From Candidatus Heimdallarchaeota archaeon B3_Heim (GTDB taxonomy: Archaea; Asgardarchaeota; Heimdallarchaeia; Hodarchaeales; Hodarchaeaceae), in contig NJBF01000071.1 in assembly GCA_003144275.1 (NCBI GenBank), positions 1-12,241 of the forward strand: a DNA stretch of 12,241 bases, given 5' to 3'. Below the pieces are notes generated by a model that saw only the letters and a list, made by a program, of their open reading frames with translations, was not told where the DNA came from and searched no databases. How positions within the stretch are numbered: the stretch's first letter is position 1; each line of letters starts with the position of its first letter. Position numbers and translations under genes: made by a program. Below are positions 192-12,241 of this stretch, piece by piece.

Positions 192-647
192 TTATCTGAA
201 GTGATATTCCATCGGGAGAAAAGAACGAATAAACATTAAAAACGCTTCTTTTAATGGTTTAAGATCAAAGATCAACTCTTTTGTTATCAAAGCTTCACCT
301 AGATCGCCATTAGAATTATGACTAAGTACCAATGCCGTCTGAATGGGGGAGGATTCCATGAAATCACCTGCACCGATCAACACGAAATCATGCTGATTTT
401 GACCACCCCTATAGGATACTTCAATGGTCAAGAGGTCGCCATCAAGCTCAACATGTAGAAAGTTGAAGCCATCTCCTGATGGCGCAATATAGGCTGACCT
501 ATCAATATCAATTGGCTGTATTACCCGATAATCATCTGCTAAAGAGAGGGGATTTAGCTGATTCGCTACTATTAATCCTACACCAAGAATAGTTGGTAAT
601 CCAACTACTAACAAGATTCCAATTCGTATTTTCGTGGAAATATTCAA
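192..647 (-). CDS. Hypothetical protein with a single N-terminal membrane anchor and a small beta-rich extracellular domain
   Basis: 151 aa ORF with TTG start. Hydrophobic N-terminus (IGILLVVGLPTILGVGLIVA). TATA-like TTTATTTA at 678-685 on the minus strand. Confidence 0.8.
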   Translation of the reverse strand: MNISTKIRIGILLVVGLPTILGVGLIVANQLNPLSLADDYRVIQPIDIDRSAYIAPSGDGFNFLHVELDGDLLTIEVSYRGGQNQHDFVLIGAGDFMESSPIQTALVLSHNSNGDLGEALITKELIFDLKPLKEAFLMFIRSFLPMEYHFR

Positions 648-677
648 TTATTTCACCAAGTAGCTATCAAATCTCCT

Positions 678-685
678 TAAATAAA
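678..685 (-). promoter_or_regulatory. Putative archaeal TATA box for 192..647
   Basis: Minus strand TTTATTTA, about 31 nt upstream of the TTG start. Confidence 0.45.
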
Positions 686-862
686 ATACCATGCAATCGA
701 ACAGGCTGGTCTAATTAATGAAACATATGTTCGAATTTGTAGACTCTAGGAGAAATCAAATTGGCTTAGTGCATTGATCTTGGATAACCCCAAAGATGAA
801 TGTAAAATGAGTGAAAACGACATCCAAACTCTCATCGGGAAAAGAAGTTGTTTTGACAAGCA

Positions 863-971
863 GAACACACACTATTTGACTCCTGACGGTTTTTTTTCTA
901 AAAAAAACGAGAGGACTGAAAATTTCCACATTAATCTAGGGTTAATAGCCCGTGGACGAAGAGTGGTAGCT
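863..971 (+). repeat. Modular intergenic element copy 1 (boxes B-C-D, box A absent)
   Basis: GAACACACACTATTTGACTCCTGACGG (863-889), ACGAGAGGACTGAAAATTTCCACATT (907-932), TAGCCCGTGGACGAAGAGTGGTAGCT (946-971). Confidence 0.93.
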
Positions 972-1691
972 CTACCCTATTTTCCTCAATTCTAAATAAA
1001 GAATATCACCCTTCATCCATTCATTGACTATGTTAAAGTTAGACTTCTGTGCTAAGTCTTTAAAATAGTCAATACTCTGCATCTGCCATAAAACACCATA
1101 TCCTGCTTCCACATCCTCAGTTGGTAATTCTACATTCAACTGTATCAGGAAGGCTTTATAATCTGCAAACTTCCTTGGAATATTGACGTCCCAGATTAAA
1201 AATTTCCCATTACTTTCTAAAACTCTATAAACCTCTTCAAATATTTTCAAATGGTCATGAAGTGGAATATACATTAGAGAAAAGAAAGCTGTGCATACAC
1301 TGAATGATTTTGGTAAAAAAATAAGCTTCGTTGCGTCCATGACAATTTTTAGTGCCTTATTTTCAGTCTCCAGTAATTCTTTTTCACTTTTATCAATCGC
1401 AACAACTTGATTGCCGTTTAATTTACCTATTATACCTTCTCCTCCTCCTCCGATATCGAGAATATACCCTTCTGTTTCTATTGGGATTAATTGGAGAGAT
1501 TGCTTTTTTGGACTATAACTAAACTGTTGTACAAATTCCATGATCTGGGTAAGTAAATTTTCATTTCCTTTTGCTTTAGCCAGATCTATAGCTTTTCTTA
1601 CTTTTTCAACGGCATCATCAAGCTTATCTTCCATGAGATCCAATTCTGCATCCTTAAGAAGCCTTTTAATTGTATTTTCTTCAACATTCAT
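972..1691 (-). CDS. Class I SAM-dependent methyltransferase with an N-terminal helical extension
   Basis: Motif I ILDIGGGGEG, acidic residue at the end of beta2 (VVAIDKS), VMDATKL, FSVCTAFFSLMYI, VYRVLESNGKFLIWD. Confidence 0.9.
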   Translation of the reverse strand: MNVEENTIKRLLKDAELDLMEDKLDDAVEKVRKAIDLAKAKGNENLLTQIMEFVQQFSYSPKKQSLQLIPIETEGYILDIGGGGEGIIGKLNGNQVVAIDKSEKELLETENKALKIVMDATKLIFLPKSFSVCTAFFSLMYIPLHDHLKIFEEVYRVLESNGKFLIWDVNIPRKFADYKAFLIQLNVELPTEDVEAGYGVLWQMQSIDYFKDLAQKSNFNIVNEWMKGDILYLELRKIG

Positions 1692-1852
1692 ATGAGACCC
1701 AGTAATCTTTCATTTTTTCATAAGGTTCAAAACAAATTTTTCATCAGATAAGTGGTTATTATACACGTGTAAATAGAAAAAGCTTTGCTTTGGTAAGGAT
1801 AGAATGTTTTTCTATAAAAAGACGTAATATTCGATGACTGGATAATTAGAAG

Positions 1853-1982
1853 GACCACCAGACATAAGATCAGAAGACTCACGAACACACTCTATTTGAC
1901 TCCTGAAGGCTTTTTCTGGATAAAAACGAGAGGACTGACATTTCCATATTTTACAGTACCCACGTTTCATGATTGCACCTAT
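1853..1982 (+). repeat. Modular intergenic element copy 2 (A-B-C plus degenerate D)
   Basis: GACCACCAGACATAAGATCAGAAGACTCACGAACACACTCTATTTGACTCCTGAAGGC from 1853, box C at 1926-1950, degenerate D AGTACCCACGTTTCATGATTGCACCTAT at 1955-1982. Confidence 0.93.
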
Positions 1983-2085
1983 CCTATTGAGTGAGCTTAA
2001 GTAGGGATCGACTTCACATAAACCCACGAAATAATTGACAATTTAAAAACTAAAGAATTGCTATTTCTTTACCATATGAAGGGAT

Positions 2086-3486
2086 TTAATCAGAGGATTG
2101 ACTTTGGGGCCTAAAAAACCACTCAATAATACACATTGCAATAGATGAGACTTCAAAGAAATTAAAGTAATCTTCCGTTTGAATTCTAAACTTTTTACGG
2201 ACATACCTAGAATCTTGTGAATAAATCGAAGCAACTAATGTGTTTTGCTGATCATAAACACCTATTTCTGAAAAGCTAATTTTGGAAATAAGGAAAGATT
2301 CTTGGGCTGTTTTAATAAGACCACACGCTTTTGGATATTGAAACATGTTTACGCTGAATAATTTGAATCGAACATTGGTTTCTTGAACTCCTGACGAAGA
2401 AGGGATTATTTTCCATCTAGTAAAAAAGAAATTACCTTTGATCTGACCCATATGACGTCCGTCTGAAGCTGTAATAACCATCCTACGTGGAAACCAGACA
2501 TAAGTAATTATCAATACAACCCCCAATGAAAAAATAAGAACATAAGGAGTAGTAAATATTCCAAAAGTGCCCAAGGGCACAATAAAAATCATTATGAGTA
2601 AGAGATATATCAAGAGTCGGTTCATTGCTGTTCTTGTGCCTGTTAGCTGTTCCTTCAGGGATTGGATTACATATTCGACCTTCATAGTCCCCGATTTTTG
2701 GACAAAATAAGCGTTTTGATCCCGTTCTTTCATTACCTCCTCTTCTTTGGCCAGCTCTTCTTCAAGGAATTCAATATTGATTCCTTGTTTTTCCATTTTC
2801 TGACGTACTTTTTGATTTTGGAGGCTCTCCTTCAAAAAATCCCGGCGTTCTTCAGGAAAATGTCGAAAGGCACGAAGAAAATGGTTTGTTCTATCAACAG
2901 GTGGTTTTAAAGCTTTTTTTCTTTCTTTTGAAGGTGAAGTAAACGCCCATACTAGAAAGATGAGATTTAAAAGAAAGGTTATCACGATCCCAAGAAAAAA
3001 GTAAGGTAAGATTACAAAAAATAGTGGGAGAACAACAATTCCTAGCATCATATTTGGAACTCGATAGCCTTCAGGAAACGGATCTGGAGGGTCTAAGCGA
3101 ATATTTAGCCCTCCCCGCACCAACGAAAGTATGAGTAACAGAGTAATATACACAAGTAGAATGAAATCTTCCTCAGATCGTGTAAAAGGACCCAGATTAT
3201 TAGCATTCACAACTTGTACAAATTGAATTAGTAGAAATACGGATATGAGTATGTAGGTTCCATCAACTAGCCAACTAATTAATGTTTTAGTTACTTTTGC
3301 GTCATCTGGATGCATTCCATAATCAGCTGAAGGAGTAGAAGAAGTGTGACCAGGTGAATCCAGTATTTCCGCCTTAAAATCTTGGTCAGGGAATGACTTG
3401 CCAATTTTCGACGAAAGGTAAGTACTACAGTTTTCACAGTAGGTTGGAGGCTTTTTATATTCCTTTCCACATAAGGGGCATTTCAT
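2086..3486 (-). CDS. Zinc-ribbon plus multi-pass membrane protein with a possible C-terminal LURP-one/scramblase (tubby-C-like) domain
   Basis: N-terminal CPLC-x11-CENC, several hydrophobic helices and a charged linker. The C-terminal beta-rich repeat pattern (ITASDGRHMGQIKG; VYDQQNTLVASI) ends in a hydrophobic helix. The domain call is inference. Confidence 0.8.
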   Translation of the reverse strand: MKCPLCGKEYKKPPTYCENCSTYLSSKIGKSFPDQDFKAEILDSPGHTSSTPSADYGMHPDDAKVTKTLISWLVDGTYILISVFLLIQFVQVVNANNLGPFTRSEEDFILLVYITLLLILSLVRGGLNIRLDPPDPFPEGYRVPNMMLGIVVLPLFFVILPYFFLGIVITFLLNLIFLVWAFTSPSKERKKALKPPVDRTNHFLRAFRHFPEERRDFLKESLQNQKVRQKMEKQGINIEFLEEELAKEEEVMKERDQNAYFVQKSGTMKVEYVIQSLKEQLTGTRTAMNRLLIYLLLIMIFIVPLGTFGIFTTPYVLIFSLGVVLIITYVWFPRRMVITASDGRHMGQIKGNFFFTRWKIIPSSSGVQETNVRFKLFSVNMFQYPKACGLIKTAQESFLISKISFSEIGVYDQQNTLVASIYSQDSRYVRKKFRIQTEDYFNFFEVSSIAMCIIEWFFRPQSQSSD

Positions 3487-3662
3487 TTGTGTTCCAGAAA
3501 AACAGGACTTCGAGCTTAAAATGTTTAACTATAACGATTGCGTTACTCTCAAAACAATCTTCGAAATTAAATATGTGAAATTGTTCTAAAAACCTAAGAA
3601 ATCTACTACTACAAACTAATTTCAAAAATGATAATAATGGGAGATATACATTGGGAATAAGT

Positions 3663-3811
3663 GACACCAGACAGAAGACCAGAAGTATTTCTACATTAAT
3701 CAACACACACTCATTATGACTCCTTAAGGCTATTACTTGGAAGTAAACGAGAGGACTGAACATTTCCATACTAATTCTTAAATAGTGGCCCGTGTGCGAT
3801 GAGTGGCAGCT
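3663..3811 (+). repeat. Modular intergenic element copy 3 (complete A-B-C-D)
   Basis: GACACCAGACAGAAGACCAGAA from 3663, CAACACACACTCATTATGACTCCTTAAGGC (3701-3730), box C at 3747-3772, GGCCCGTGTGCGATGAGTGGCAGCT ending 3811. Confidence 0.95.
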
Positions 3812-4003
3812 ATGAATCTATGGTTATGTTAAAGTGAAAAGTGGAGAGATTCGATCACCACTGGTATAAATATCGGAAAAAGAGAAGATATCTATTTCAG
3901 GTCAAATTTTGCCTTCTTAACATTAGATAAAAATTAAATGGTTCTCAAACTTCACAAAGAGAGTGAACAATACTTCATTAAGAAGAAATTTTGAATTCAT
4001 CAA

Positions 4004-4011
4004 TTATATAT
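4004..4011 (+). promoter_or_regulatory. Putative archaeal TATA box for 4044..4571
   Basis: TTATATAT about 33 nt upstream of the TTG start. GAGGGAA lies just before the start. Confidence 0.5.
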
Positions 4012-4043
4012 AATCTACTAATCCGCAACTTACGAGGGAACAA

Positions 4044-4571
4044 TTGACCGATATTAATCAAACGAATAAGTATATAATTAGAGTCTCTCTATTATGCCAT
4101 CCTGAGGACCTACTGTTCCCGTTAATCCGTGCATTGATTCAAAAATATAAAGGGCAAACTACAAATCAAACATTTGAAGACTTAACTCTCACTGCTTCGA
4201 CAATAAAGATCCGCATTGCTAATAGAATTGTAAAAGTGATTTTAGTCCAACCTATTGGTCGTGGATTCTTTAAAAAAAGGTTCGGTCACCACTTTCGTTC
4301 TAGTGGAGCCATTATTGCATTTTCAAAAGATAACAATGATTCGTTTGAAGCATCAAGGGCCTATTACCAGCGTTTCAAGGATATCAATACTGCTGATGTT
4401 CCAATTGCATTTGTTGGGATTCAAGAGTCACCTGATGACCTTGTTACTAATGAAGCAATCCAGCTGGAGGTGGGTACATCTGAATTCTATTATTTCATTC
4501 AGCATAATGATTTCGAAGTATTAGGGAAAATCCTCCTCTCCTTAGGAACAAAAATCTTCACACCAGCTTAG
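4044..4571 (+). CDS. Ras/Rab-fold protein with degenerate nucleotide-binding motifs (putative pseudo-GTPase)
   Basis: Rab-like spacing and segments (TIKIRIANRIVKVILV, HFRSSGAIIAFSKDNNDSFE, VPIAFVG). No GxxxxGK[ST], DxxG or NKxD motif. Confidence 0.7.
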   Translation: MTDINQTNKYIIRVSLLCHPEDLLFPLIRALIQKYKGQTTNQTFEDLTLTASTIKIRIANRIVKVILVQPIGRGFFKKRFGHHFRSSGAIIAFSKDNNDSFEASRAYYQRFKDINTADVPIAFVGIQESPDDLVTNEAIQLEVGTSEFYYFIQHNDFEVLGKILLSLGTKIFTPA

Positions 4572-4646
4572 CAGTTGTTATTCACAGCTACATATGAGTA
4601 TGGAAATAGAGAATTAGTAAGAATTGAGAAAAATAAAAGTGAGAAA

Positions 4647-4757
4647 GACCATCAGACATAAGATCAGAAAGACGCAACACACACCCTTTTAGACTCCTTA
4701 AGGCTTTTTTTCTAGAATACACGAGGGGACTGACACTTTCTACAATTCTTCCAAGAA
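4647..4757 (+). repeat. Modular intergenic element copy 4 (A-B-C, D absent)
   Basis: GACCATCAGACATAAGATCAGAA from 4647, CAACACACACCCTTTTAGACTCCTTAAGGC, ACGAGGGGACTGACACTTTCTACAAT (4721-4746), then hairpin TTCTT-CC-AAGAA (4746-4757). Confidence 0.93.
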
Positions 4758-4766
4758 ATGGAAATT

Positions 4767-5327
4767 TTATATCTGATCAAGATAGATATTTCCTAGACGA
4801 TCAAGAACTTCTGAAACATTAATTCCTGTCTTTGCTGAAACGGGGAAATACTGAACAGAAAAACCAAATTCTAAGGTTCTCTTACTTAAGGTGTCACAAA
4901 ATTCAAGAGCTTGAGAGTCACTTACGAAATTAGGGGAATCTGCAGAGCCAACTGAAACACGAAGGTCAATTTTGTTACCAACAAGAATGATCGGTATAAC
5001 ACCCTTCCCATTGTGTTTAAAAATTGCCTCAATCCAAAATTCACAAGCTGCAAAAGATTCAGGATCAGTAACATCAAACATGACTATTGCACCCAGAGCA
5101 CCATAATAAAAAACCGAACGAATAGTACCTTCTTTTGCTAAGGGAACTAAATCCCAGAGCTGAAATTTGATACTTAGATTACGGATCATCCTATATGTTA
5201 AACAAAAATCAGCACCTATAGTCGCTGCATAGTGTGGAGAAAAACTCTTAGGACAAAAATATTGTAAATAGGAAGTTTTTCCAACTCCAGGATTACCAAC
5301 TAAGACGATTTTCATGAGATAAGACAT
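4767..5327 (-). CDS. Rab-like small GTPase
   Basis: G1 GNPGVGKT, G2 ATIGADF, atypical G3 WDLVP (DxxG glycine lost), G4 NKID, G5 SAK. Confidence 0.92.
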   Translation of the reverse strand: MSYLMKIVLVGNPGVGKTSYLQYFCPKSFSPHYAATIGADFCLTYRMIRNLSIKFQLWDLVPLAKEGTIRSVFYYGALGAIVMFDVTDPESFAACEFWIEAIFKHNGKGVIPIILVGNKIDLRVSVGSADSPNFVSDSQALEFCDTLSKRTLEFGFSVQYFPVSAKTGINVSEVLDRLGNIYLDQI

Positions 5328-5356
5328 AGAAATGCCCCATGGAGGAAGATCGATGA

Positions 5357-5364
5357 ATATAAAA
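5357..5364 (-). promoter_or_regulatory. Putative archaeal TATA box for 4767..5327
   Basis: Minus strand TTTTATAT, 30 nt upstream of ATG. Confidence 0.5.
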
Positions 5365-5445
5365 CTTAAACTACTTCATATGAGTTTGGAAATGGAGAAA
5401 GTTTTGAAAAAGAAAAACAATGAAAATCTAATGAGATCCTAGAAG

Positions 5446-5594
5446 GACCACTAGACCTAAGATCAGAATTTTCTTTAAAAACAACACAGATACGCTATTA
5501 GACTCCTTAAGGCTTTTCTTTAAGAGAATACGAGAGGCCTGAGAATTTCCACACTAATTTTTACTTAGTAGCCATTGTGCGATTAGTGGCAGCT
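5446..5594 (+). repeat. Modular intergenic element copy 5 (complete A-B-C-D)
   Basis: GACCACTAGACCTAAGATCAGAA from 5446, CAACACAGATACGCTATTAGACTCCTTAAGGC, ACGAGAGGCCTGAGAATTTCCACACT (5530-5555), GTAGCCATTGTGCGATTAGTGGCAGCT ending 5594. Confidence 0.93.
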
Positions 5595-5655
5595 GGCAGA
5601 GCATGTCAGTAGGCAACAAGAAATGGAGGACTTAGTCAGTAACTAAGAAAAATCG

Positions 5656-6183
5656 TCATTCACCCTCACTTGGTGGAAAAAAAGTCCAATTCCTGGAGGT
5701 TATGACTTCTAAGAAAACAAAAAATCGGAAAATAATCGCATATTTAGACACAGATGCCAGTCTGAAAGAAAGAATAGTAGCGAGGGAAGGAGAAAAGAAA
5801 AAGGAATAGATAACAATAGCCAAAAAGGAAGCAAGAAAATTTAATAGCAACACGGAAAAAATAAAGGGAGGAATAAAATACCAGAGCAGCCCAGGAGGAA
5901 GAGACCAAGTAGAATAAGGGGTTTCAGTTATAATCGGAAAATTGAAGAAATTTAAATGAATATCAATCGTCCAGCAGAGATCAGGAATAGTGCTTGCAAA
6001 ATTTAAGGGAAAGGAAAAAGAACGGGTGAGATCAGAATTCAGAAGGGACAAGGAAGAAATCGTAAATACAACAAAAAGAATCAAAACGGGAAGACGATAA
6101 GACGGACGGGCAGGAAAAAGGGAAGCAGTATGGAGACTACCGAAATGCCAGATGAGGAGTGTAAAAAGGATGCATAGCAACAA
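5656..6183 (-). CDS. Hypothetical multi-pass membrane protein, paralog of 6433..6852
   Basis: 175 aa, TTG start, very hydrophobic. Shares IWHxG, SxLNxDLT, SFP and FFxFxIxTE in order with the neighbouring ORF. Confidence 0.65.
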   Translation of the reverse strand: MLLCILFTLLIWHFGSLHTASLFPARPSYRLPVLILFVVFTISSLSLLNSDLTRSFSFPLNFASTIPDLCWTIDIHLNFFNFPIITETPYSTWSLPPGLLWYFIPPFIFSVLLLNFLASFLAIVIYSFFFSPSLATILSFRLASVSKYAIIFRFFVFLEVITSRNWTFFPPSEGE

Positions 6184-6248
6184 GATCTAATTCTCATCCT
6201 AAAAAATGATAAACAACACTAGTCAATCCCTCATTGCGATGATCAAAA

Positions 6249-6377
6249 GACCAGCAGACATAAGACCAGAAGACTCACGAACACACACTCATTTGGACTC
6301 CTTAAGCTAACTAACGAGAGGACTGAAAATTTCCACATTGTTTAGTAAATATTAGACCGTGTGCGATGAGTGGTATT
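6249..6377 (+). repeat. Modular intergenic element copy 6 (complete A-B-C-D, B-C linker hairpin deleted)
   Basis: GACCAGCAGACATAAGACCAGAAGACTCACGAACACACACTCATTTGGACTCCTTAAGC from 6249, box C exact at 6314-6339, AGACCGTGTGCGATGAGTGGTAT ending near 6376. Confidence 0.95.
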
Positions 6378-6432
6378 GAATAGCAATTGCTAACATGTCA
6401 ACCGAAGCCTCCACGTGTACACTACTGCTCTA

Positions 6433-6852
6433 TCAACGGGAGGTTCTAAAGACAAAGGAGCAGAAACTAATGACTACAAATGTAAAAAAGAAATTAAGAA
6501 AGAGAACCAATAAAGTAATTGACGGAGAATAAAGAAGGAGAAGCTCAGGCCAACCAAGGATAGAGCGACCCAGAACCTCAGTAAAGATCGTAAAATCAAA
6601 AAACTCGAGACGGACATACCATAAAGGAAGGACGGGATCAATTTCACTAGTGATATGAAATGGAAAAGACAAAAAATGGGTGAGATCAAGGTTTAAGACA
6701 GACAACAGGGAGAGAACAAGGATTACCGAAAAAACCAGCAAGTGAAGGAGAAAACGAAAGCGAGAAAAAACTGACGCATACTTCGTCGTCCCAAGATGCC
6801 AGATAAGGACACCAAGAAGGATACTAAGAAGGAAATCGATTCCTCCAGCCAA
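6433..6852 (-). CDS. Hypothetical multi-pass membrane protein, paralog of 5656..6183
   Basis: 139 aa, ATG start, hydrophobic. Colinear similarity to 5656..6183. Confidence 0.7.
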   Translation of the reverse strand: MAGGIDFLLSILLGVLIWHLGTTKYASVFSRFRFLLHLLVFSVILVLSLLSVLNLDLTHFLSFPFHITSEIDPVLPLWYVRLEFFDFTIFTEVLGRSILGWPELLLLYSPSITLLVLFLNFFFTFVVISFCSFVFRTSR

Positions 6853-6892
6853 TCATAGTGAATGTCAACAGAATAGTTCCCTCAAGATAAAA

Positions 6893-7006
6893 GACCTTCA
6901 GACATAAGATCAGAAATATTTCTCATTAAATCAACACCCACTATAGTGACTGACTCCAGAGGGCATTTTCTTAAAAAAAAAAGATGGGATTACTAATATC
7001 CAAATT
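6893..7006 (+). repeat. Modular intergenic element copy 7 (A-B plus diverged C)
   Basis: GACCTTCAGACATAAGATCAGAA from 6893, CAACACCCACTATAGTGACTGACTCCAGAGGGC, AAGATGGGATTACTAATATCCAAATT (6981-7006) aligns without gaps to box C at 17 of 26 positions. Confidence 0.85.
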
Positions 7007-7063
7007 GCTCTGAAATATTAGTCTTTGTCGTAATCAATAATGAAAAATTGACTTCATCAATTT

Positions 7064-7468
7064 TTATGTCATATCATGAACATAGGGAATAGCTAGATTA
7101 ACAGCGAAAGCAACTAGAAGAAAAATGAATTGAATTCCCCCAACATCGGGGCCAGTCAATGCATTCGGGATCAGCATATATGCACCATAGAGAAAGGCTA
7201 GTACTGCCGCAACTAATGCTTTAAATTTTTGATCCGCATTCGTAGGCGGAGTATTGGAACCATATTTCTCAACTGCACCAACTCCCACCATTAATAAAAC
7301 TCCTATCCCTACTATGAAAAATTCAATCGTACCAGGATCTTCAGTAGACGAAGTAAGATTGAAATAAAGCTCAACAAGGGCCAGAATAGCTATAGAAGAT
7401 GCAGGAATTGCTTCTTTTATACTTCGTAAGTAATCTGTCATACTTTCAACTTTAGGCATTAAAAACAC
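7064..7468 (-). CDS. Small hypothetical membrane protein (about 4 TM helices)
   Basis: 134 aa with four hydrophobic segments. TATA-like TTTATATA at 7496-7503. The start could be GTG 7468 or a slightly downstream ATG. Confidence 0.75.
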   Translation of the reverse strand: MFLMPKVESMTDYLRSIKEAIPASSIAILALVELYFNLTSSTEDPGTIEFFIVGIGVLLMVGVGAVEKYGSNTPPTNADQKFKALVAAVLAFLYGAYMLIPNALTGPDVGGIQFIFLLVAFAVNLAIPYVHDMT

Positions 7469-7495
7469 CTCAGCCGTTAAAGTGAGTTATTATCC

Positions 7496-7503
7496 TATAT
7501 AAA
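7496..7503 (-). promoter_or_regulatory. Putative archaeal TATA box for 7064..7468
   Basis: Minus strand TTTATATA, 28 nt upstream of the start. Confidence 0.5.
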
Positions 7504-7609
7504 GTCTATCAGATAGAAAACCATTAATAGGAGGATTTCCTGCTAGTTCTAGTTGTTATTTAACGTAGCAATTAATTTTTGCCAATAACTTATCTATGAG
7601 AAGGATGGG

Positions 7610-9430
7610 ATGAAAACGGCACAAACACAAAATTCAAGTTTAAAAAATAGAAAATGGCCAACTGAACATTTGGAGGAAGTTATTTCATCACTACCACAAA
7701 CAGTTCCACAAAAGATTATGAAGAATTTGTCACCTAACTGGCAGGATATTACCCAAACAGATTCTCAAGCAGTTGAGCTAGCTAGTGACAATCTTCCAGG
7801 AATCTATGCCCTCGGACAGGATTTACGAAGGGAAAAAAGAAGTAAAGCAAAAGGTGGGTTAGTATACAGGGTATTAACAAATGATAGAACTCTTGAGAAC
7901 AGCAATAAAGCAGTTATACAATATCTCATGATCTGGAGCAGACAACGAATAGCACTAACATTCGCAAACTATTTTCTTCCAATACTGATTCTAGTAGGAT
8001 TAACATTCTATATTAATACTGATATTCTATTCTATAAGGATCCATTTAGCCTTTTAGAACCAATTGATTCCACACGAATACTAGGAATCATCTATGGTAC
8101 CTTCACAGAAATGTGGTTAATCTTCTTATCATGTCTGTGGTTCATTCTGGTTGGCGTATGGAATGTTGTTAAGTGGATTAGAAATGGAGCAGCATCAATG
8201 AGAGTCCTTTTTGGAGTTTATGGGTCTTTATACTTAATTAGTGCATTCATTGAATATCGATTGCACCTCTCTCCATTATTTTCCTTTAATTTAGGAGAAA
8301 TATTAAATAATCCCAACTATACTGTTTTAGTAATTAAGATAACTTGGACTCCGATACTCGCAATAGCATTTTCAATTGGATTTTATATGCTAGTCAGAAA
8401 GCTTCCAAGTCTGAAAAAGATAATTGGAGGCCATAAAATGGATTATGCCCCGATATTTATCTATCTGAAGAGGTCAACACCTTCTGAGAAATGGCAGAAA
8501 GAGGTCTTATTTGATAAGTTCCATTATTGCGTGAAGGAGTTAATCGTACCAGAAGACGATTATAAGTTAGTAATGGAAGGAAGATGGCATTCTTTTGAGT
8601 TATATCGGAGAAAAAAATGGATTATTAACAGAATACTTTGGCTCGGGAGTCTTTGTGGCTTCATAATCTTACTCCTCGTTTCGATATATGGTATTCTAAA
8701 TGGAATTGACATATTGGAAATCTTGGAACCACTCCAACTAACAAATCAACTTGAATTATTTATACAAAGGTTGATTTATCCGTTATTACTTATTGGAACA
8801 GGGTATTGGTCGAGTACTAGGTATTCGACGAATCTTATTGGGAAAAAAACTAGAACAAAGAAACAATTGAAGAAGGAAAAATATTATCTATCTTCTGAAA
8901 AACTAAAGCAGCTCTGGAACTTGAAATCAAAAGAAGCACACTTTACTATAAAGGATAAACTGCAATACCCAGAAACATATCGAAATGAGAAGAATGGACT
9001 GACTTGGTTATCATTCTATGATGATGAAGTAGAGAAAGAGAAGGGAGCAAATATAATCTGCGAATTAGGCTTGATAACGAAATTCAAGATGAGATTCTAC
9101 AAAAGAGGAGTAGCCAATGATTTGGTGAAGAGTGGAAAAAAAATGATTAAGCAGAATAGACCAGAGGAAGCCCTATATAGATATGAAAAAGCTATAGAAT
9201 TAAAACCTGATTTAACACAGGCATGGATAAACAAAGCAGATCTTTTCAAGGATATTGACAGAGTTGAAGAAGCACAGGAGGCAATTGACTTTGCAATTCA
9301 AACTCAACCAAGGAATGCCCAAGCAATGTTTGTTCAAGGAGCAATTTTTGAGAAGAAAGAGGAGAAAGATAAGGCAAAAGAGGCTTTTGAAAAAGCAGAA
9401 AAGCTAGGTTATAGGAGATCAGAGGATTAG
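7610..9430 (+). CDS. Multi-pass membrane protein with C-terminal tetratricopeptide repeats
   Basis: 606 aa with about 6 hydrophobic helices. C-terminal TPR pattern: EEALYRYEKAIELKPDLTQAWINKA, AIQTQPRNAQAMFVQG, AKEAFEKA. Confidence 0.88.
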   Translation: MKTAQTQNSSLKNRKWPTEHLEEVISSLPQTVPQKIMKNLSPNWQDITQTDSQAVELASDNLPGIYALGQDLRREKRSKAKGGLVYRVLTNDRTLENSNKAVIQYLMIWSRQRIALTFANYFLPILILVGLTFYINTDILFYKDPFSLLEPIDSTRILGIIYGTFTEMWLIFLSCLWFILVGVWNVVKWIRNGAASMRVLFGVYGSLYLISAFIEYRLHLSPLFSFNLGEILNNPNYTVLVIKITWTPILAIAFSIGFYMLVRKLPSLKKIIGGHKMDYAPIFIYLKRSTPSEKWQKEVLFDKFHYCVKELIVPEDDYKLVMEGRWHSFELYRRKKWIINRILWLGSLCGFIILLLVSIYGILNGIDILEILEPLQLTNQLELFIQRLIYPLLLIGTGYWSSTRYSTNLIGKKTRTKKQLKKEKYYLSSEKLKQLWNLKSKEAHFTIKDKLQYPETYRNEKNGLTWLSFYDDEVEKEKGANIICELGLITKFKMRFYKRGVANDLVKSGKKMIKQNRPEEALYRYEKAIELKPDLTQAWINKADLFKDIDRVEEAQEAIDFAIQTQPRNAQAMFVQGAIFEKKEEKDKAKEAFEKAEKLGYRRSED

Positions 9431-9511
9431 AAGAGAACACGAAAGTATGTGGTTAAAATCAAGAAAGGAAGTTTTCCTGTGAGCTTTGAAATAATGGAAC
9501 AATTTGGAAGA

Positions 9512-9602
9512 AAAACAGGAATAATTGATCAACGATTCCTTCTCGGCTCATTTTTTCCTTCCTGTTTTGGTTTCTTTTTCCTATCAATCATCCTTTTTTT
9601 TT
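9512..9602. terminator. Possible terminator region between convergent genes
   Basis: Inverted repeat AAAACAGGAA (9512-9521) / TTCCTGTTTT (9559-9568) followed by pyrimidine- and T-rich tracts ending in a T run at 9594-9602. Confidence 0.35.
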
Positions 9603-9636
9603 ATTAAAACACGAGAGGACTGAAAATTTCCACATT
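9599..9636 (+). repeat. Modular intergenic element copy 8 (box C only, with the preceding T/A hairpin)
   Basis: ACGAGAGGACTGAAAATTTCCACATT (9611-9636) is identical to copies 1 and 6. It is preceded by TTTT-ATT-AAAA (9599-9609). Confidence 0.9.
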
Positions 9637-9954
9637 CTTAGGAAATCCATGAATAAACAAAACCATAAGTCTCACAGAATGGGATTATTTTGAGCAAAAA
9701 AAGGGTAATATTATTCGAGGGAGTACTAAAAACATCTAGACGTGAAAAAAAGTATGAACATGACTCGAGATAATAGAAGAAATGACAATTATGATTACAA
9801 GGGGTTATATCTGACAGATCTGGATTATCAAACGAATTCACATATGAAAGAAGAACATCACGAAGGAAAAGGAGAATGTTAAGCTCCTCTACTGGATTAC
9901 AGATATGTAACAGGATGTAAGTAAAAATATCAACAGCATCGATATTATAGAGAT

Positions 9955-10848
9955 TTACCTTAAGGGAATCAATGCTTCTTCTAAATTTTCTAGCGCAAGC
10001 GATGGCCGACCCATTAATTTGTAGATCATTCCTTTAATCAAAAGACATCTAATAATCCCATTCTCTGCCCATAAATGATACTGAGCATCGCTGAAAATGT
10101 TCAAACTCTGATAAATATTCTCTAACGCCTGCTCAAATTCCCCTTTTAACGCATAAATATGGGAAATTAATACTAAAGAGTCTGCGAGGATACTTTTATT
10201 CTTAAGCTCCTTGATTAAATTCAAACTACTTTTAAAAAATTCGAGGGCAAGGTTTAAATCACCAGTTGAGGTGTAAATATTCCCAATAACTTGTAATTGA
10301 AGTGAACTTTCTGTAAGCAAAAGCGAATCATTTTGGAGAATTTTTAATCCCCTTTTTTGAAAGTCTAAGGCATGCTTTAATTCTCCCATTCTATAGTACA
10401 TTTCTCCCAAAACGTGAAAAACTGAAAAAAACTCAAAGTTGGGCTTTTCGTGCGCTTCTACATAATTTTCAATATAATCTAGCGCGAATGTGACTTCTTC
10501 TTCCCATTTGTGCATATTCCTTACTCTCCCTGGTCCAAAAATGCTTCGGATAAAGGAAATCAAATCAACTGCAATAGTATATGTATCAGGAGTCTCTTGA
10601 AAAAGGTCAGAATATACTTTCAAACTTAATGAGGATTGGATTTGGAGTGGGATTTCTTTTTTCTTGCTTTCCCTAAGAGCGTGTTTCTCAAAGGTTAATG
10701 CTTGTTTTACGTTTCCAGTCTGTTCAAGGATTTTACTCTCCAGAATCATACCATCGAATTTATTCTCAGGAGGTAAGTTTTCTATAGCCTGTAAAGCCTG
10801 ATCAAACATTTTGAACATTAAAAGTTCTTGAATTTCTTTTAGTTCCAT
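9955..10848 (-). CDS. Tetratricopeptide-repeat protein
   Basis: 297 aa with repeated TPR motifs: LGEMYYRMGELKHALDFQKRGL, IGNIYTSTGDLNLALEFFKSSL, ISHIYALKGEFEQALENIYQSL, KGMIYKLMGRPSLALENLEEAL. Confidence 0.9.
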   Translation of the reverse strand: MELKEIQELLMFKMFDQALQAIENLPPENKFDGMILESKILEQTGNVKQALTFEKHALRESKKKEIPLQIQSSLSLKVYSDLFQETPDTYTIAVDLISFIRSIFGPGRVRNMHKWEEEVTFALDYIENYVEAHEKPNFEFFSVFHVLGEMYYRMGELKHALDFQKRGLKILQNDSLLLTESSLQLQVIGNIYTSTGDLNLALEFFKSSLNLIKELKNKSILADSLVLISHIYALKGEFEQALENIYQSLNIFSDAQYHLWAENGIIRCLLIKGMIYKLMGRPSLALENLEEALIPLR

Positions 10849-10876
10849 CTCGGTAAATAATCAGAAACAATATCCC

Positions 10877-10884
10877 TTATAAAA
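10877..10884 (-). promoter_or_regulatory. Putative archaeal TATA box for 9955..10848
   Basis: Minus strand TTTTATAA, 29 nt upstream of ATG. Confidence 0.5.
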
Positions 10885-11096
10885 CTTTATAGTATTTCAA
10901 ACTGATATCTTAGGAGAATTTGGATTGAAAAAGAGAGGGAGAGGTGAGAACACAGCAGATAGGAGAATAAGGAAGCGCTCTACCCGAAGGATTAGCTAAT
11001 CTGTGGCCCATCGGAAATATCCGGAGAGTTTCTCTAGATAACTCTTTATGAATTCTCAACCAGTACATCTGGACATGAAAAAGGGGAGTTAATATA

Positions 11097-11609
11097 ATGA
11101 TAGAAAACGATGACAAATACTTAATGAAAATATGTTGTATTGGAAGTGTATCTGACCTTAAAACGGAATTCATTCGTCGATTTGCGATGGATAAGTATGA
11201 TGTAAATTACTTACCAACATTAGGTGTCGACGTAACGACGAAGAAAATCGACATAGATAATGAACAGGTAAAACTCATTCTCGTAGATACAGCAGGGCAT
11301 GAAGTTTTTAGCAAAAAACGCCCTTCCTATTACAGGGGAGCATCTGCATTTATAATTTTCTTTGATAAAGGAGATCAGCAGTCTTTCAAGGCAATACTAC
11401 AGTGGAAAAAGGAATTTCATGAACATGTGCTTGACCCTACACCACATGCGATTGTTGGTTTTCAAGCTGAAACTGAAGAGGTTTCTACGGAAGAAGCAAA
11501 ACGATTAGTTGAGCAATTAAAGTCTACCTACTTTGAATGCAACCCAACACACGGACAGGAATTATTAAAAATTCTTCAATTCTTAGGAAGAAAGGTAATA
11601 GCAGGATAA
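11097..11609 (+). CDS. Rab-like small GTPase with degenerate G1/G4/G5
   Basis: G2 PTLGVD and G3 DTAGHE retained, plus Rab-like segments (KKIDIDNEQVKLILVD, YYRGASAFII). G1 reads GSVSDLKT and G4 reads VGFQ. Confidence 0.88.
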   Translation: MIENDDKYLMKICCIGSVSDLKTEFIRRFAMDKYDVNYLPTLGVDVTTKKIDIDNEQVKLILVDTAGHEVFSKKRPSYYRGASAFIIFFDKGDQQSFKAILQWKKEFHEHVLDPTPHAIVGFQAETEEVSTEEAKRLVEQLKSTYFECNPTHGQELLKILQFLGRKVIAG

Positions 11610-11631
11610 GGAAGCAATCACAAAGAAAAAA

Positions 11632-11697
11632 GACCACCAGACAGAAGACCAGAAGACAAACAACACACACTCATTTGGACTCCTGAAGGCTTTTTCC
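11632..11697 (+). repeat. Modular intergenic element copy 9 (A-B, possible box C remnant AGAGGA at 11718-11723)
   Basis: GACCACCAGACAGAAGACCAGAAGACAAACAACACACACTCATTTGGACTCCTGAAGGCTTTTTCC. Confidence 0.92.
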
Positions 11698-11758
11698 TAA
11701 CAAAATCAAGAAAACCTAGAGGAAAATATATTAGGAAGAAGGATCTTTCTAGGAAGCT

Positions 11759-12241
11759 ATGAATAATGAGGTTTTGAGAGCATTATCTGTAGTCTTAATC
11801 TTATCTTTTTTCGTTGGTTGTGGAGTATTTCCAACTCCAGTTGGAATGGGGAATAAATCTACTTTAAATTCAAGTCGATACAATGCTATTCCTGAAGATT
11901 TAGCAGAAAAGACTCAAGCAAATTACTATTTTCATAACGATTACACTGATTTCGTTATAGAATTGAAAACGCTAAATGAGTCCTATCCTGCTATAACCGA
12001 TGTTTATTCGTTAAACGCGAAGTACACTCATTCCAATACCGTAGGGGGAAAAGAAGTTTGGTGTATTAGAATCACAAATGAAAGCACTGGCTTACATAAA
12101 CCAGAAGTGCTTTTTATTGGGGGACATCATGGGAATGAGCGTGTGGGAGTAGAAAATGCCTTTTGGTATGCACAATGGTTGGTAACTAACTATGGGAAAG
12201 ATACCCGTGTAACTTCTCTTGTAGATAATCGGGAAATATAC
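11759..12241 (+). CDS. Secreted M14-family zinc carboxypeptidase (carboxypeptidase T-like), 5' part, runs off the window
   Basis: Not in the ORF track. ATG 11759 opens a frame to the window end: MNNEVLRALSVVLILSFFVGC (signal peptide, possible lipobox) ... GKEVWCIRIT ... KPEVLFIGGHHGNE (M14 HxxE zinc motif) ... LVDNREIY. Confidence 0.88.
   Translation, partial: MNNEVLRALSVVLILSFFVGCGVFPTPVGMGNKSTLNSSRYNAIPEDLAEKTQANYYFHNDYTDFVIELKTLNESYPAITDVYSLNAKYTHSNTVGGKEVWCIRITNESTGLHKPEVLFIGGHHGNERVGVENAFWYAQWLVTNYGKDTRVTSLVDNREIY

Follow-up and report, generated by a model that had tools for sequence, protein, structure and literature searches.

Covarying hairpins in orphan copies of the 23S rRNA 3' end and trailer that separate gene cassettes in a Heimdallarchaeon

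The window analysed here is the whole of a 12,241-nt stretch, positions 1-12,241 of contig NJBF01000071.1 (GCA_003144275.1) from Candidatus Heimdallarchaeota archaeon B3_Heim, the source genome, referred to below as G000. It holds nine copies of a repeat element, each lying between swappable gene cassettes. The copies are all on the minus strand and are built from conserved blocks A, B, C and D that are joined by variable linkers. The cassette array occupies positions 192-12,241 and contains 12 ORFs of unrelated functions, eight of them on the minus (rRNA-sense) strand, with one or two ORFs in each inter-repeat interval. Encoded products include a methyltransferase, a zinc-ribbon membrane protein, three Ras-like GTPases, TPR proteins, small hydrophobic proteins and an M14-like peptidase.

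Copy 1 (830-973; nhmmer, and 100.8 bits with the covariance model) consists of a degenerate A, B, the B-C hairpin (889-908), C, the C-D hairpin (930-946) and D, and the stop codon of a minus-strand ORF (972-1691) abuts its block D. Copies 3 (3657-3814) and 5 (5440-5595), both recovered by nhmmer and the covariance model, carry blocks A to D with all three linkers: copy 3 has a long A-B linker (3681-3692), a B-C hairpin (3733-3746) and a C-D hairpin (3770-3786), and copy 5 has the corresponding features at 5465-5474, 5514-5528 and 5553-5569. Copy 6 (6245-6454) runs from A to D and through about 75 nt more of the 23S 3' domain, with a C-D hairpin at 6339-6351. Its B-C hairpin is missing (6296-6316), a loss that the earlier note had described and that we confirm, and a 3-nt bulge form stands there instead, as in true trailers. 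The other copies are partial or decayed. Copy 2 (1848-1951, nhmmer) is trailer only, with A, B, the B-C hairpin (1911-1926) and C, and its homology is lost at the boundary between C and the C-D linker. Copy 4 (4642-4757, nhmmer) has A, B, a B-C palindrome (4710-4717), C and the C-D hairpin (4746-4757), and is without D. Copy 7 (6890-7028; nhmmer E 2.5e-9, covariance model 25 bits) is degenerate, retaining A, the A-B linker (6912-6923), B and decayed C and D. Copy 8 (9595-9639; nhmmer, covariance model) is a fragment of only the B-C hairpin (9599-9609), block C and the start of the C-D hairpin, and so ends at both linkers, and copy 9 (11,629-11,699, nhmmer) comprises A, B and the B-C hairpin, with homology lost beyond.

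One cassette of the window can be followed elsewhere. The interval 3773-4746, from the C-D hairpin of copy 3, its left boundary, to the C block of copy 4, its right boundary, is also found on contig C33 of genome G020 at 91% identity, among other neighbours. It carries a plus-strand ORF (4044-4571) for a degenerate Ras-like protein. Within copy 4, identity with G020 is lost at the boundary between C and the C-D hairpin.

The repeat element is an orphan, minus-strand copy of the 3' end of the 23S rRNA gene together with its whole 3' trailer. Alignment with the ends of real 23S genes identifies block D as the final ~20 nt of the 23S on the minus strand, and blocks C, B and A together form the 3' trailer; among the orphan copies, the 23S part extends over the last 20 to ~330 nt of the gene. 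Positions 2721-2973 of the Rfam model RF02540 (LSU_rRNA_archaea) directly adjoin the repeat, on the opposite strand, on contig C65 (twice) and in G007, G010, G013, G001, G002 and G012. The real 23S ends of G007 and G004 align with the repeat: on contig C8 of G007, LSU positions 2545-2987 (running off the contig) are followed by C', B' and A', and on contig C44 of G004, LSU positions 1019-2987 are followed by the trailer. The G000 assembly lacks the 3' part of the 23S and the real trailer of the source genome. A genus-wide search with 23S sequence from upstream of the boundary of the long copies gave a match in G007 only and did not recover the real trailer of the G000 subclade. A search of Rfam 15 against both strands of the window at permissive thresholds gave no covariance-model match at E <= 1. 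Two other identities were considered and set aside: block C (ACGAGAGGAC) as a sarcin-ricin loop, which is on the wrong strand, the real loop lying upstream in long copies, and a group II intron (from a GTGCG start and a domain-V-like D block), which was dropped on the rRNA match.

The element is widespread in the genus, with more than 100 co-oriented copies standing between unrelated gene cassettes and with copies in 15 of the 21 other genomes searched. In the source genome the array extends over at least ~44 kb across four contigs, and in G007 it begins immediately behind the real 23S gene. Our search of the full-text literature found no description of 23S-tail cassette arrays.

In archaea, the 23S leader and trailer pair in a helix with a bulge-helix-bulge motif, a substrate of the tRNA splicing endonuclease. 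Blocks A, B and C make up the trailer (3') strand of this pre-rRNA processing stem, which is why they are conserved and why they have no fold on their own. In the source genome's own leaders, the sequence before the 23S is complementary to C and B and that before the 16S is complementary to A, with an 18-nt identity to the A block upstream of the 16S on contig C88. The leader-trailer duplex of G007 cofolds at -87 kcal/mol. The G000 23S leader cofolds with window copies 1, 3, 5 and 6 at -39 to -52 kcal/mol, and in these cofolds the leader is taken up by the cores and each of the two linkers forms a hairpin of its own. All three linkers lie where the trailer strand is free of the leader: the C-D hairpin at the mature 23S 3' end, the B-C hairpin at the 3-nt bulge of the bulge-helix-bulge-like motif and the A-B linker between the inner and outer stems. 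Minimum-energy prediction of the motif gives a 3-nt trailer bulge, a 4-bp helix and a 4x2 internal loop, where the canonical form has a 3-nt bulge, 4 bp and a second 3-nt bulge. A long-range pairing of B with D was also tried; judged by eye it is only partly compensated, and block B1 pairs with the 23S leader instead.

The earlier note had read the linkers as hairpins whose arms change in concert, on the basis of 14 stems (six B-C, five C-D and three A-B), all of which are present at the coordinates given above. The B-C and C-D hairpins are well above the frequency expected by chance. For unique linkers drawn from 108 copies, best-stem scores average 4.71 for 53 B-C linkers, compared with 3.04 in shuffles (sd 0.10), and 5.03 for 47 C-D linkers, compared with 3.26 (sd 0.125). 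Linker covariation likewise holds up, strongly, in a larger alignment of 105 copies from nine genomes of the genus, made with the covariance model and fitted to the structure. There, 82% of cells are paired (67.8% in shuffles), 172 cells have changed on both sides (62.5 in shuffles), and the covariation score of 0.284 (0.108 in shuffles) was reached by 0 of 500 shuffles, a count over 105 related copies that is not a probability. Controls with slid partners scored no higher than 0.087, and double changes occur in 11 of the 12 stem pairs. The B-C and C-D linkers are genuine hairpins, with stems of 5-7 bp, loops of 3-5 nt and compensatory change. The A-B stems are there too, but they have only 4 bp, occur in ~13 long variants and admit alternative pairings, and their case is weak.

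The proposal that these hairpins belong to a folded element of the plus strand fared differently. It drew on three G-T wobbles, which are real in the window, but the strand argument fails across copies because G-T and A-C cells are equally common on the model alignment (40 versus 47). Unique best stems had given 14 G-T and 6 A-C, and we treat the wobble test as giving no signal. Standard pairs make up 82.0% of cells on the plus strand and 82.6% on the minus strand of the 105-copy alignment, and the whole element, folded alone on either strand, has no excess stability over shuffles (z -1.3 to +1.7); neither result supports a plus-strand element. RNAalifold returned no structure for 28 long copies because the extracted stretches are not all homologous. 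Read in reverse complement, the conserved core is the 3' end and trailer of the 23S. As for what a core with exchangeable stems might signify, a structured ncRNA finds no support here, and a recombination substrate, either single-stranded DNA, as also suggested at the time, or a cruciform, remains the leading reading. Covariation by itself identifies neither a strand nor a free-standing RNA.

Several observations connect the hairpins with recombination. By Mantel tests, in which r values are small and the copies related, sequence variation is linked between B1 and B2 (r 0.32, p 0.001), between the B-C hairpin and C (r 0.27, p 0.005), between the C-D hairpin and D (r 0.17-0.18, p 0.02-0.04) and between D1 and D2 (r 0.29, p 0.009), and linkage between C and the C-D hairpin is absent (r -0.11, p 0.93). 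Sequence linkage is broken at the base of the C-D hairpin. Five junctions between the near-identical arrays of G000, G013 and G020 lie at hairpin edges, three of them at the boundary between C and the C-D hairpin, and about 18 of 21 copies that end early stop, by eye, at a linker edge. G000 and G020 carry one and the same cassette in different surroundings, and arrays are rearranged between G000 and G013 at 94-96% identity. The two certain 23S-attached trailers (G007 and G004), both from a subclade whose orphans also lack the B-C hairpin, have neither hairpin, and all seven G007 orphan copies have the C-D hairpin. We found no recombinase genes of the tyrosine, serine or Y1 families on the array contigs. 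Matches to PF00589 in G000, G003, G007, G013, G018 and G020 are all off the array contigs of these fragmented assemblies, and PF01797 (Y1/HUH, IS200/IS605-type) has no match in G000, G007, G013 or G020 and one off-array match in G018.

Based on these data, we tentatively propose, at a little under an even chance, that the hairpins belong to the cassette side of an att-like recombination repeat and not to a working rRNA trailer. Each repeat would be chimeric, with a module from the trailer (B, B-C hairpin, C) joined to one from the 23S end (C-D hairpin, D), and reassortment between them would take place at the base of the C-D hairpin. The cassettes are most likely to be circular or exchanged units. 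Their hairpin-bearing 23S-end/trailer junction could recombine either with any orphan junction or with the junction, free of hairpins, that follows the real 23S gene. There the hairpin would extrude, as a cruciform or as single-stranded DNA, to mark the crossover or to help it. A recombinase would act in trans, and a conserved Xer-like tyrosine recombinase, found in every genome (on contig C27 in G000), is a candidate; it is also possible that homologous recombination through the short conserved cores takes its place. Several points count against the att-like reading. The array contigs have no recombinase gene, the wobbles lack the strand asymmetry that an attC-like single-strand substrate might show, homologous recombination within the conserved cores would also put apparent breakpoints at core/hairpin borders, and in one orthologous pair the C-D stem has uncompensated single changes, as under neutral drift.

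We consider it unlikely that the hairpins are instead inherited from working pre-rRNA, as variable spacer hairpins under selection in functional 23S trailers, as minus-strand RNA. The processing stem would then accept insertions at its bulges and junctions alone, where they must fold away, and the orphans would be displaced former trailers without a role of their own. The placement of the hairpins exactly at unpaired points of the leader-trailer duplex agrees with this, as do the AT-rich hairpin extensions that orphan 23S tails carry at the tips of rRNA helices, the C-D hairpin of a G009 copy beside an assembly gap that is possibly a real trailer, and mismatches that resemble neutral decay, transition-type being about as frequent as transversion-type. 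However, the hairpins are absent from both certain real trailers and one is present in each of the seven G007 orphans, the minus strand has no G-U excess, and a hairpin replacing the 3-nt bulge should spoil the canonical bulge-helix-bulge cut, judging from the known requirements of archaeal splicing endonucleases.

Equally improbable, in our judgement, is that the hairpins are a functionless mutational by-product, in which AT-rich palindromes turn over in unconstrained linkers via template switching, slippage or hairpin-end repair. Both arms would change at once, mimicking covariation, and breakpoints would cluster at the hairpins for no other reason than the fragility of palindromes or the lack of shared homology outside the flanking cores. 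The recurrence of TTTCT/AGAAA-type arms in B-C, C-D and A-B linkers and in the insertions of orphan 23S tails is consistent with such turnover, as are the absence of strand asymmetry and the greater divergence of hairpins than of their flanks in cassettes that are 91-95% identical. Against it, loops of 3-5 nt are maintained and loop-less perfect palindromes are rarer than in shuffles, five of the six C-D stem pairs show several pair types across many copies and genomes, and ~90% of orphans carry hairpins at the same two positions across two subclades.

Oligo-T is a signal for transcription termination in archaea, and a T-run, loop and A-run would offer it in both directions, insulating the cassettes and leaving arm complementarity as a side effect. 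Many B-C linkers do have T5-8 / A5-8 runs (T5 or longer on the plus strand in 28 of 57 and on the minus strand in 21 of 57), and cassette genes of both strands end near repeats. We nevertheless find this account highly doubtful, as both strands have runs in only 16 of 57 B-C and 1 of 48 C-D linkers, and the runs are broken by matched C-G and A-T pairs that covary, for which a terminator has no use. Least credible of all is a structured ncRNA of the plus strand, ribozyme-like or guide-like, with a conserved core and exchangeable stems: the three plus-strand wobbles and the 14-to-6 G-T count among unique linkers, a strand-symmetric best-stem count, speak for it, but A-C is no less common than G-T (47 versus 40) in the larger alignment, the core is accounted for as antisense of the 23S end and trailer, there is neither an autonomous fold nor an Rfam match, and copies end at many points, which would not be tolerated in a functional RNA gene.

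If the att-like reading is carried further, it leads to a proposal that we hold to be possible though rather doubtful, namely that this genus has a cassette system resembling integrons, with the rRNA operon as its anchor. The folded, hairpin-bearing 23S-end/trailer mimic on circular one-gene cassettes would correspond to attC and the hairpin-less junction of the real 23S to attI, with a host recombinase acting in trans and the crossover falling at the base of the C-D hairpin, that is, at the mature 23S 3' end. This would represent a second, independent invention of the integron principle, the recombination of a variable folded cassette site with a plain entry site on the chromosome, and its raw material would be an rRNA processing stem in place of attC and attI. 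Asgard archaea are the archaeal lineage closest to eukaryotes, and the cargo in the window includes Ras-like GTPases and TPR proteins. Given their extent over four contigs (at least ~44 kb) in the source genome and their presence in 15 of the 21 other genomes searched, the arrays contribute heavily to variation in gene content and to breaks in assemblies near rRNA operons. Should the hairpins prove passive, the puzzle of a conserved core with covarying stems is still explained.

The element shares features with several known systems and differs from each. With the archaeal processing stem the window copies share blocks A, B and C, its trailer strand, and a B-C linker at the 3-nt bulge beside the 4-bp helix; unlike that stem, they have no nearby leader partner and no 23S body, most have a hairpin replacing the bulge, and the predicted second bulge is a 4x2 internal loop and not a clean 3-nt bulge. 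Tandem accretion at the 3' ends of stable-RNA genes (tRNA/tmRNA islands, integrase-less CIME-type arrays) is similar in that the co-oriented direct repeats reproduce the 3' part of the RNA gene being targeted, the intact gene stands at the head of the array (as shown in G007) and unrelated cargo lies between the repeats. Here, however, the 23S end and trailer are targeted in place of a tRNA, each unit is a single-gene cassette of 0.6-2.5 kb with no integrase, and the repeats, of 100-480 nt, are modular with variable hairpins. Integron cassette arrays and CALINs, which recombine attC with attI, have been reported in Asgard archaea too (PMC9668308). They differ from the present arrays in that no intI was found beside the latter in these fragmented assemblies, in that the cores pair with the rRNA leader and are not mutually complementary, in that there are no R''/L''-L'/R' boxes that pair across the site, in that two or three small hairpins take the place of one long imperfect attC hairpin, in that there is no strand bias, and in that genes lie on both strands. 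The two nevertheless have in common small, mostly one-gene cassettes that are shared among genomes in differing order, co-oriented repeats that bound them, short conserved cores around a variable hairpin whose pairing is conserved, and a chromosomal entry site without a hairpin that faces a cassette site with one.

The window, which is the whole of the 12.2-kb contig C79 in a 3.9-Mb genome of 36% GC, carries nine copies of a repeat of ~110-210 nt, all in the same orientation (copies 1-9: 830-973, 1848-1951, 3657-3814, 4642-4757, 5440-5595, 6245-6454, 6890-7028, 9595-9639 and 11629-11699), with one or two unrelated ORFs in each interval. The cargo comprises a methyltransferase, a zinc-ribbon membrane protein, three Ras-like GTPases, TPR proteins, small hydrophobic proteins and an M14-like peptidase, and eight of the 12 ORFs lie on the minus strand. 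Genome-wide there are ~25 copies, spread over C79, C65, C9 and the first 9.4 kb of C50 and uniformly oriented within each of these four contigs. The Ras/Rab-like small GTPase genes, one of which is degenerate, occupy three separate cassettes (4767-5327, minus; 11097-11609, plus; 4044-4571, plus), so that eukaryote-like signature genes sit in a variable, exchangeable array. The neighboring cassettes at 5656-6183 and 6433-6852 have a purine-rich plus strand (45% A, 23% G); on the minus strand they code for small hydrophobic proteins that are paralogs of each other and have no Pfam match. The ORF at 6433-6852 is probably a real gene, because it is intact in the relative G020 (contig C5; 86% nucleotide identity, no indels) and its changes by codon position (21/10/26) are fewest at the second.

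We conclude that the conserved core of the repeat is the trailer strand of the pre-rRNA processing stem, based on LSU matches, the trailers of real 23S genes, leader complementarity and cofolding. Matches to the Rfam archaeal LSU model (positions 2721-2973) directly adjoin the repeat but lie on the other strand; C65 has two such cases, and six relatives show the match as well. In the congener G007, contig C8 ends within the real 23S gene; downstream of that gene come blocks D', C', B' and A', and after these an array of orphan copies. G004 has the same trailer behind its 23S gene. Alignment identifies block D as the last ~20 nt of 23S and places the common start of long copies ~330 nt short of the 23S end, just upstream of the sarcin-ricin loop. 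Long orphans of at least five genomes (L068:14265, L032:12734/3825, L066:8330, L096:569 and others) share this start, which may mark a second fixed point of recombination or go back to a single ancestral capture. The orphan 23S tails of C65 (3498-3825 and 12431-12734) bear extra AT-rich hairpin extensions (TTTCT...AGAAA type) at rRNA helix tips, absent from the real 23S of G007 and G004. On one contig of G001 (C57:307-3242) lies a complete 23S gene with a 3' end and trailer unrelated to those of the genus; the contig is possibly a contaminant of that bin.

The rRNA operon of this genome (G000) lies on the minus strand of C88 (1-3500), with 16S at 1616-3089, a spacer of ~460 nt and the 5' part of 23S running off the contig start; this 23S part was not among the matches of an LSU family search of the genome. 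Blocks C and B have their complement in the stretch preceding 23S, and a stretch preceding 16S has an 18-nt identity to block A on the plus strand. With A-block sequence in the leader upstream of 16S, the 16S-23S transcript as a whole is probably enclosed by an outer helix. Cofolding of the 23S leader of G000 with copies of the window gave -39 to -52 kcal/mol (-87 kcal/mol for the G007 leader and trailer), with the cores predicted to pair with the leader and the B-C and C-D linkers to form local hairpins. Copy 6 is predicted to have a 3-nt bulge where other copies have the B-C hairpin. The linkers interrupt the processing stem at the mature 23S 3' end (C-D), at a bulge beside a 4-bp helix, resembling a bulge-helix-bulge motif (B-C), and at the step between inner and outer stems (A-B). 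The earlier note had assigned the core to a folded plus-strand element. That assignment is not supported: the core as read there is the antisense of the trailer strand, the element on its own is no more stably folded than its shuffles, whichever strand is taken, and Rfam returned no family in the window.

The core observation of that note, real and covarying linker hairpins, stands for B-C and C-D; the A-B stem is weak and ambiguous (4 bp in ~13 long variants). All the stems it listed are present at the coordinates given, and copy 6 indeed lacks the B-C hairpin. Among 108 copies, collected from this genome and from eight congeners, the best ungapped stem scored 4.71 in unique B-C linkers (3.04 in composition-matched shuffles) and 5.03 in unique C-D linkers (3.26); none of the shuffle sets approached the real linkers. 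A covariance model with only the B-C and C-D stems as structure found and aligned 105 copies. In that alignment, which is fitted to the structure and made of related copies, 82% of cells were paired (67.8% in shuffles), 172 had changed on both sides (62.5) and the covariation score was 0.284 (0.108), a value reached by 0 of 500 shuffles; sliding partners by 1-3 columns gave at most 0.087. The C-D stem is the stronger, with 86.6% of cells paired and several pair types at five of six pairs. Most loops have 3-5 nt; palindromes without a loop are less frequent in linkers than in shuffles.

Neither of the two trailers certainly attached to real 23S genes (G007 and G004) has either hairpin, both having short linkers instead; the main gap in this comparison is the real trailer of the subclade of G000, G003, G013, G018 and G020, which is not assembled. 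The C-D hairpin is present in all seven G007 orphans, and ~90% of orphans in the five-genome subclade carry both hairpins, a few long "true-like" ones having neither. In G009, whose "single-contig" genome is a scaffold with 100-N gaps (C1:322000-340000), a gap opens immediately behind a repeat copy, at the expected place of the 23S gene; the copy beside the gap, which may be an attached or an orphan one, has the C-D hairpin. Some orphans of the G007/G009/G012 subclade have no B-C hairpin and bear an extra one in block C, at an internal loop of the processing stem (L067:7674-7775, L068:3550-3649, L069:7862-7975, L087:3044-3146).

Cassettes are shared among genomes, with junctions at edges of the B-C and C-D hairpins. 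The module at 3773-4746 recurs in G020 (C33) at 91% identity with different neighbors; identity starts around the C block/C-D hairpin of copy 3 and ends at the C/C-D hairpin boundary of copy 4. Another cassette (6424-6828) is also found in G020, on contig C5. Pieces of C9, C50 and C65 match the G013 array on C70 at 94-96% identity but in a different arrangement; three junctions of that array, read base by base, fall at B/B-C hairpin, B-C hairpin/C and C/C-D hairpin. Judged by eye, ~18 of 21 truncated copies stop at a linker edge. Across 62 complete copies, the similarities of neighboring segments are correlated in two groups, one of B1, B2, B-C hairpin and C and the other of C-D hairpin, D1 and D2, with no correlation between C and the C-D hairpin (r -0.11, p 0.93). 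Variable sites lie in mid-C yet are linked to the left side, which puts the apparent exchange zone at the last few nucleotides of C or the hairpin base. The repeats therefore have the look of chimeras, each combining a trailer module with a 23S-end module, which also accounts for the hairpin-less linker kept by a real 23S gene and for the hairpin brought by every cassette behind it.

We propose, with a little less than even confidence, that the hairpins are part of a recombination site. A cassette would carry a hairpin-bearing mimic of the 23S end/trailer junction, which would recombine either with an orphan junction or with the plain one behind 23S, the hairpin serving recognition or strand exchange. 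Genes for tyrosine, serine and Y1 recombinases were looked for and are absent from all array contigs; the single conserved Xer-like tyrosine recombinase that each genome encodes outside the arrays is a candidate only. Homologous recombination through the conserved cores may also operate, and would likewise be expected to leave apparent junctions at hairpin borders. That the hairpins were inherited from a working pre-rRNA seems unlikely to us, and we hold it equally improbable that they are a mutational by-product. Oligo-T terminators are a poor candidate, as runs in both directions occur in just 16 of 57 B-C and 1 of 48 C-D linkers. A plus-strand RNA is the least credible reading: the plus strand had been assigned from G-T wobbles, and over 105 copies the modelled pairs hold 40 G-T against 47 A-C cells, standard pairs making up 82.0% read on plus and 82.6% on minus. 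A strand-symmetric best-stem count over unique linkers gave 14 G-T and 6 A-C, and since the two counts disagree, we take it that the wobbles hold no usable strand signal.

Full-text literature searches yielded no description of 23S-tail cassette arrays. Integron/CALIN arrays with canonical attC sites are reported in Asgard archaea (PMC9668308). Such arrays and tandem accretion at the 3' ends of stable-RNA genes are the closest known kinds. The arrays described here differ from tandem accretion in target, in cassette size, in that no integrase was found and in their hairpins, and from integron/CALIN arrays in being without two defining integron features, intI and attC architecture. New in the present analysis are the covariation of the hairpins, where these sit in the processing stem, the lack of a strand preference and the break in linkage.
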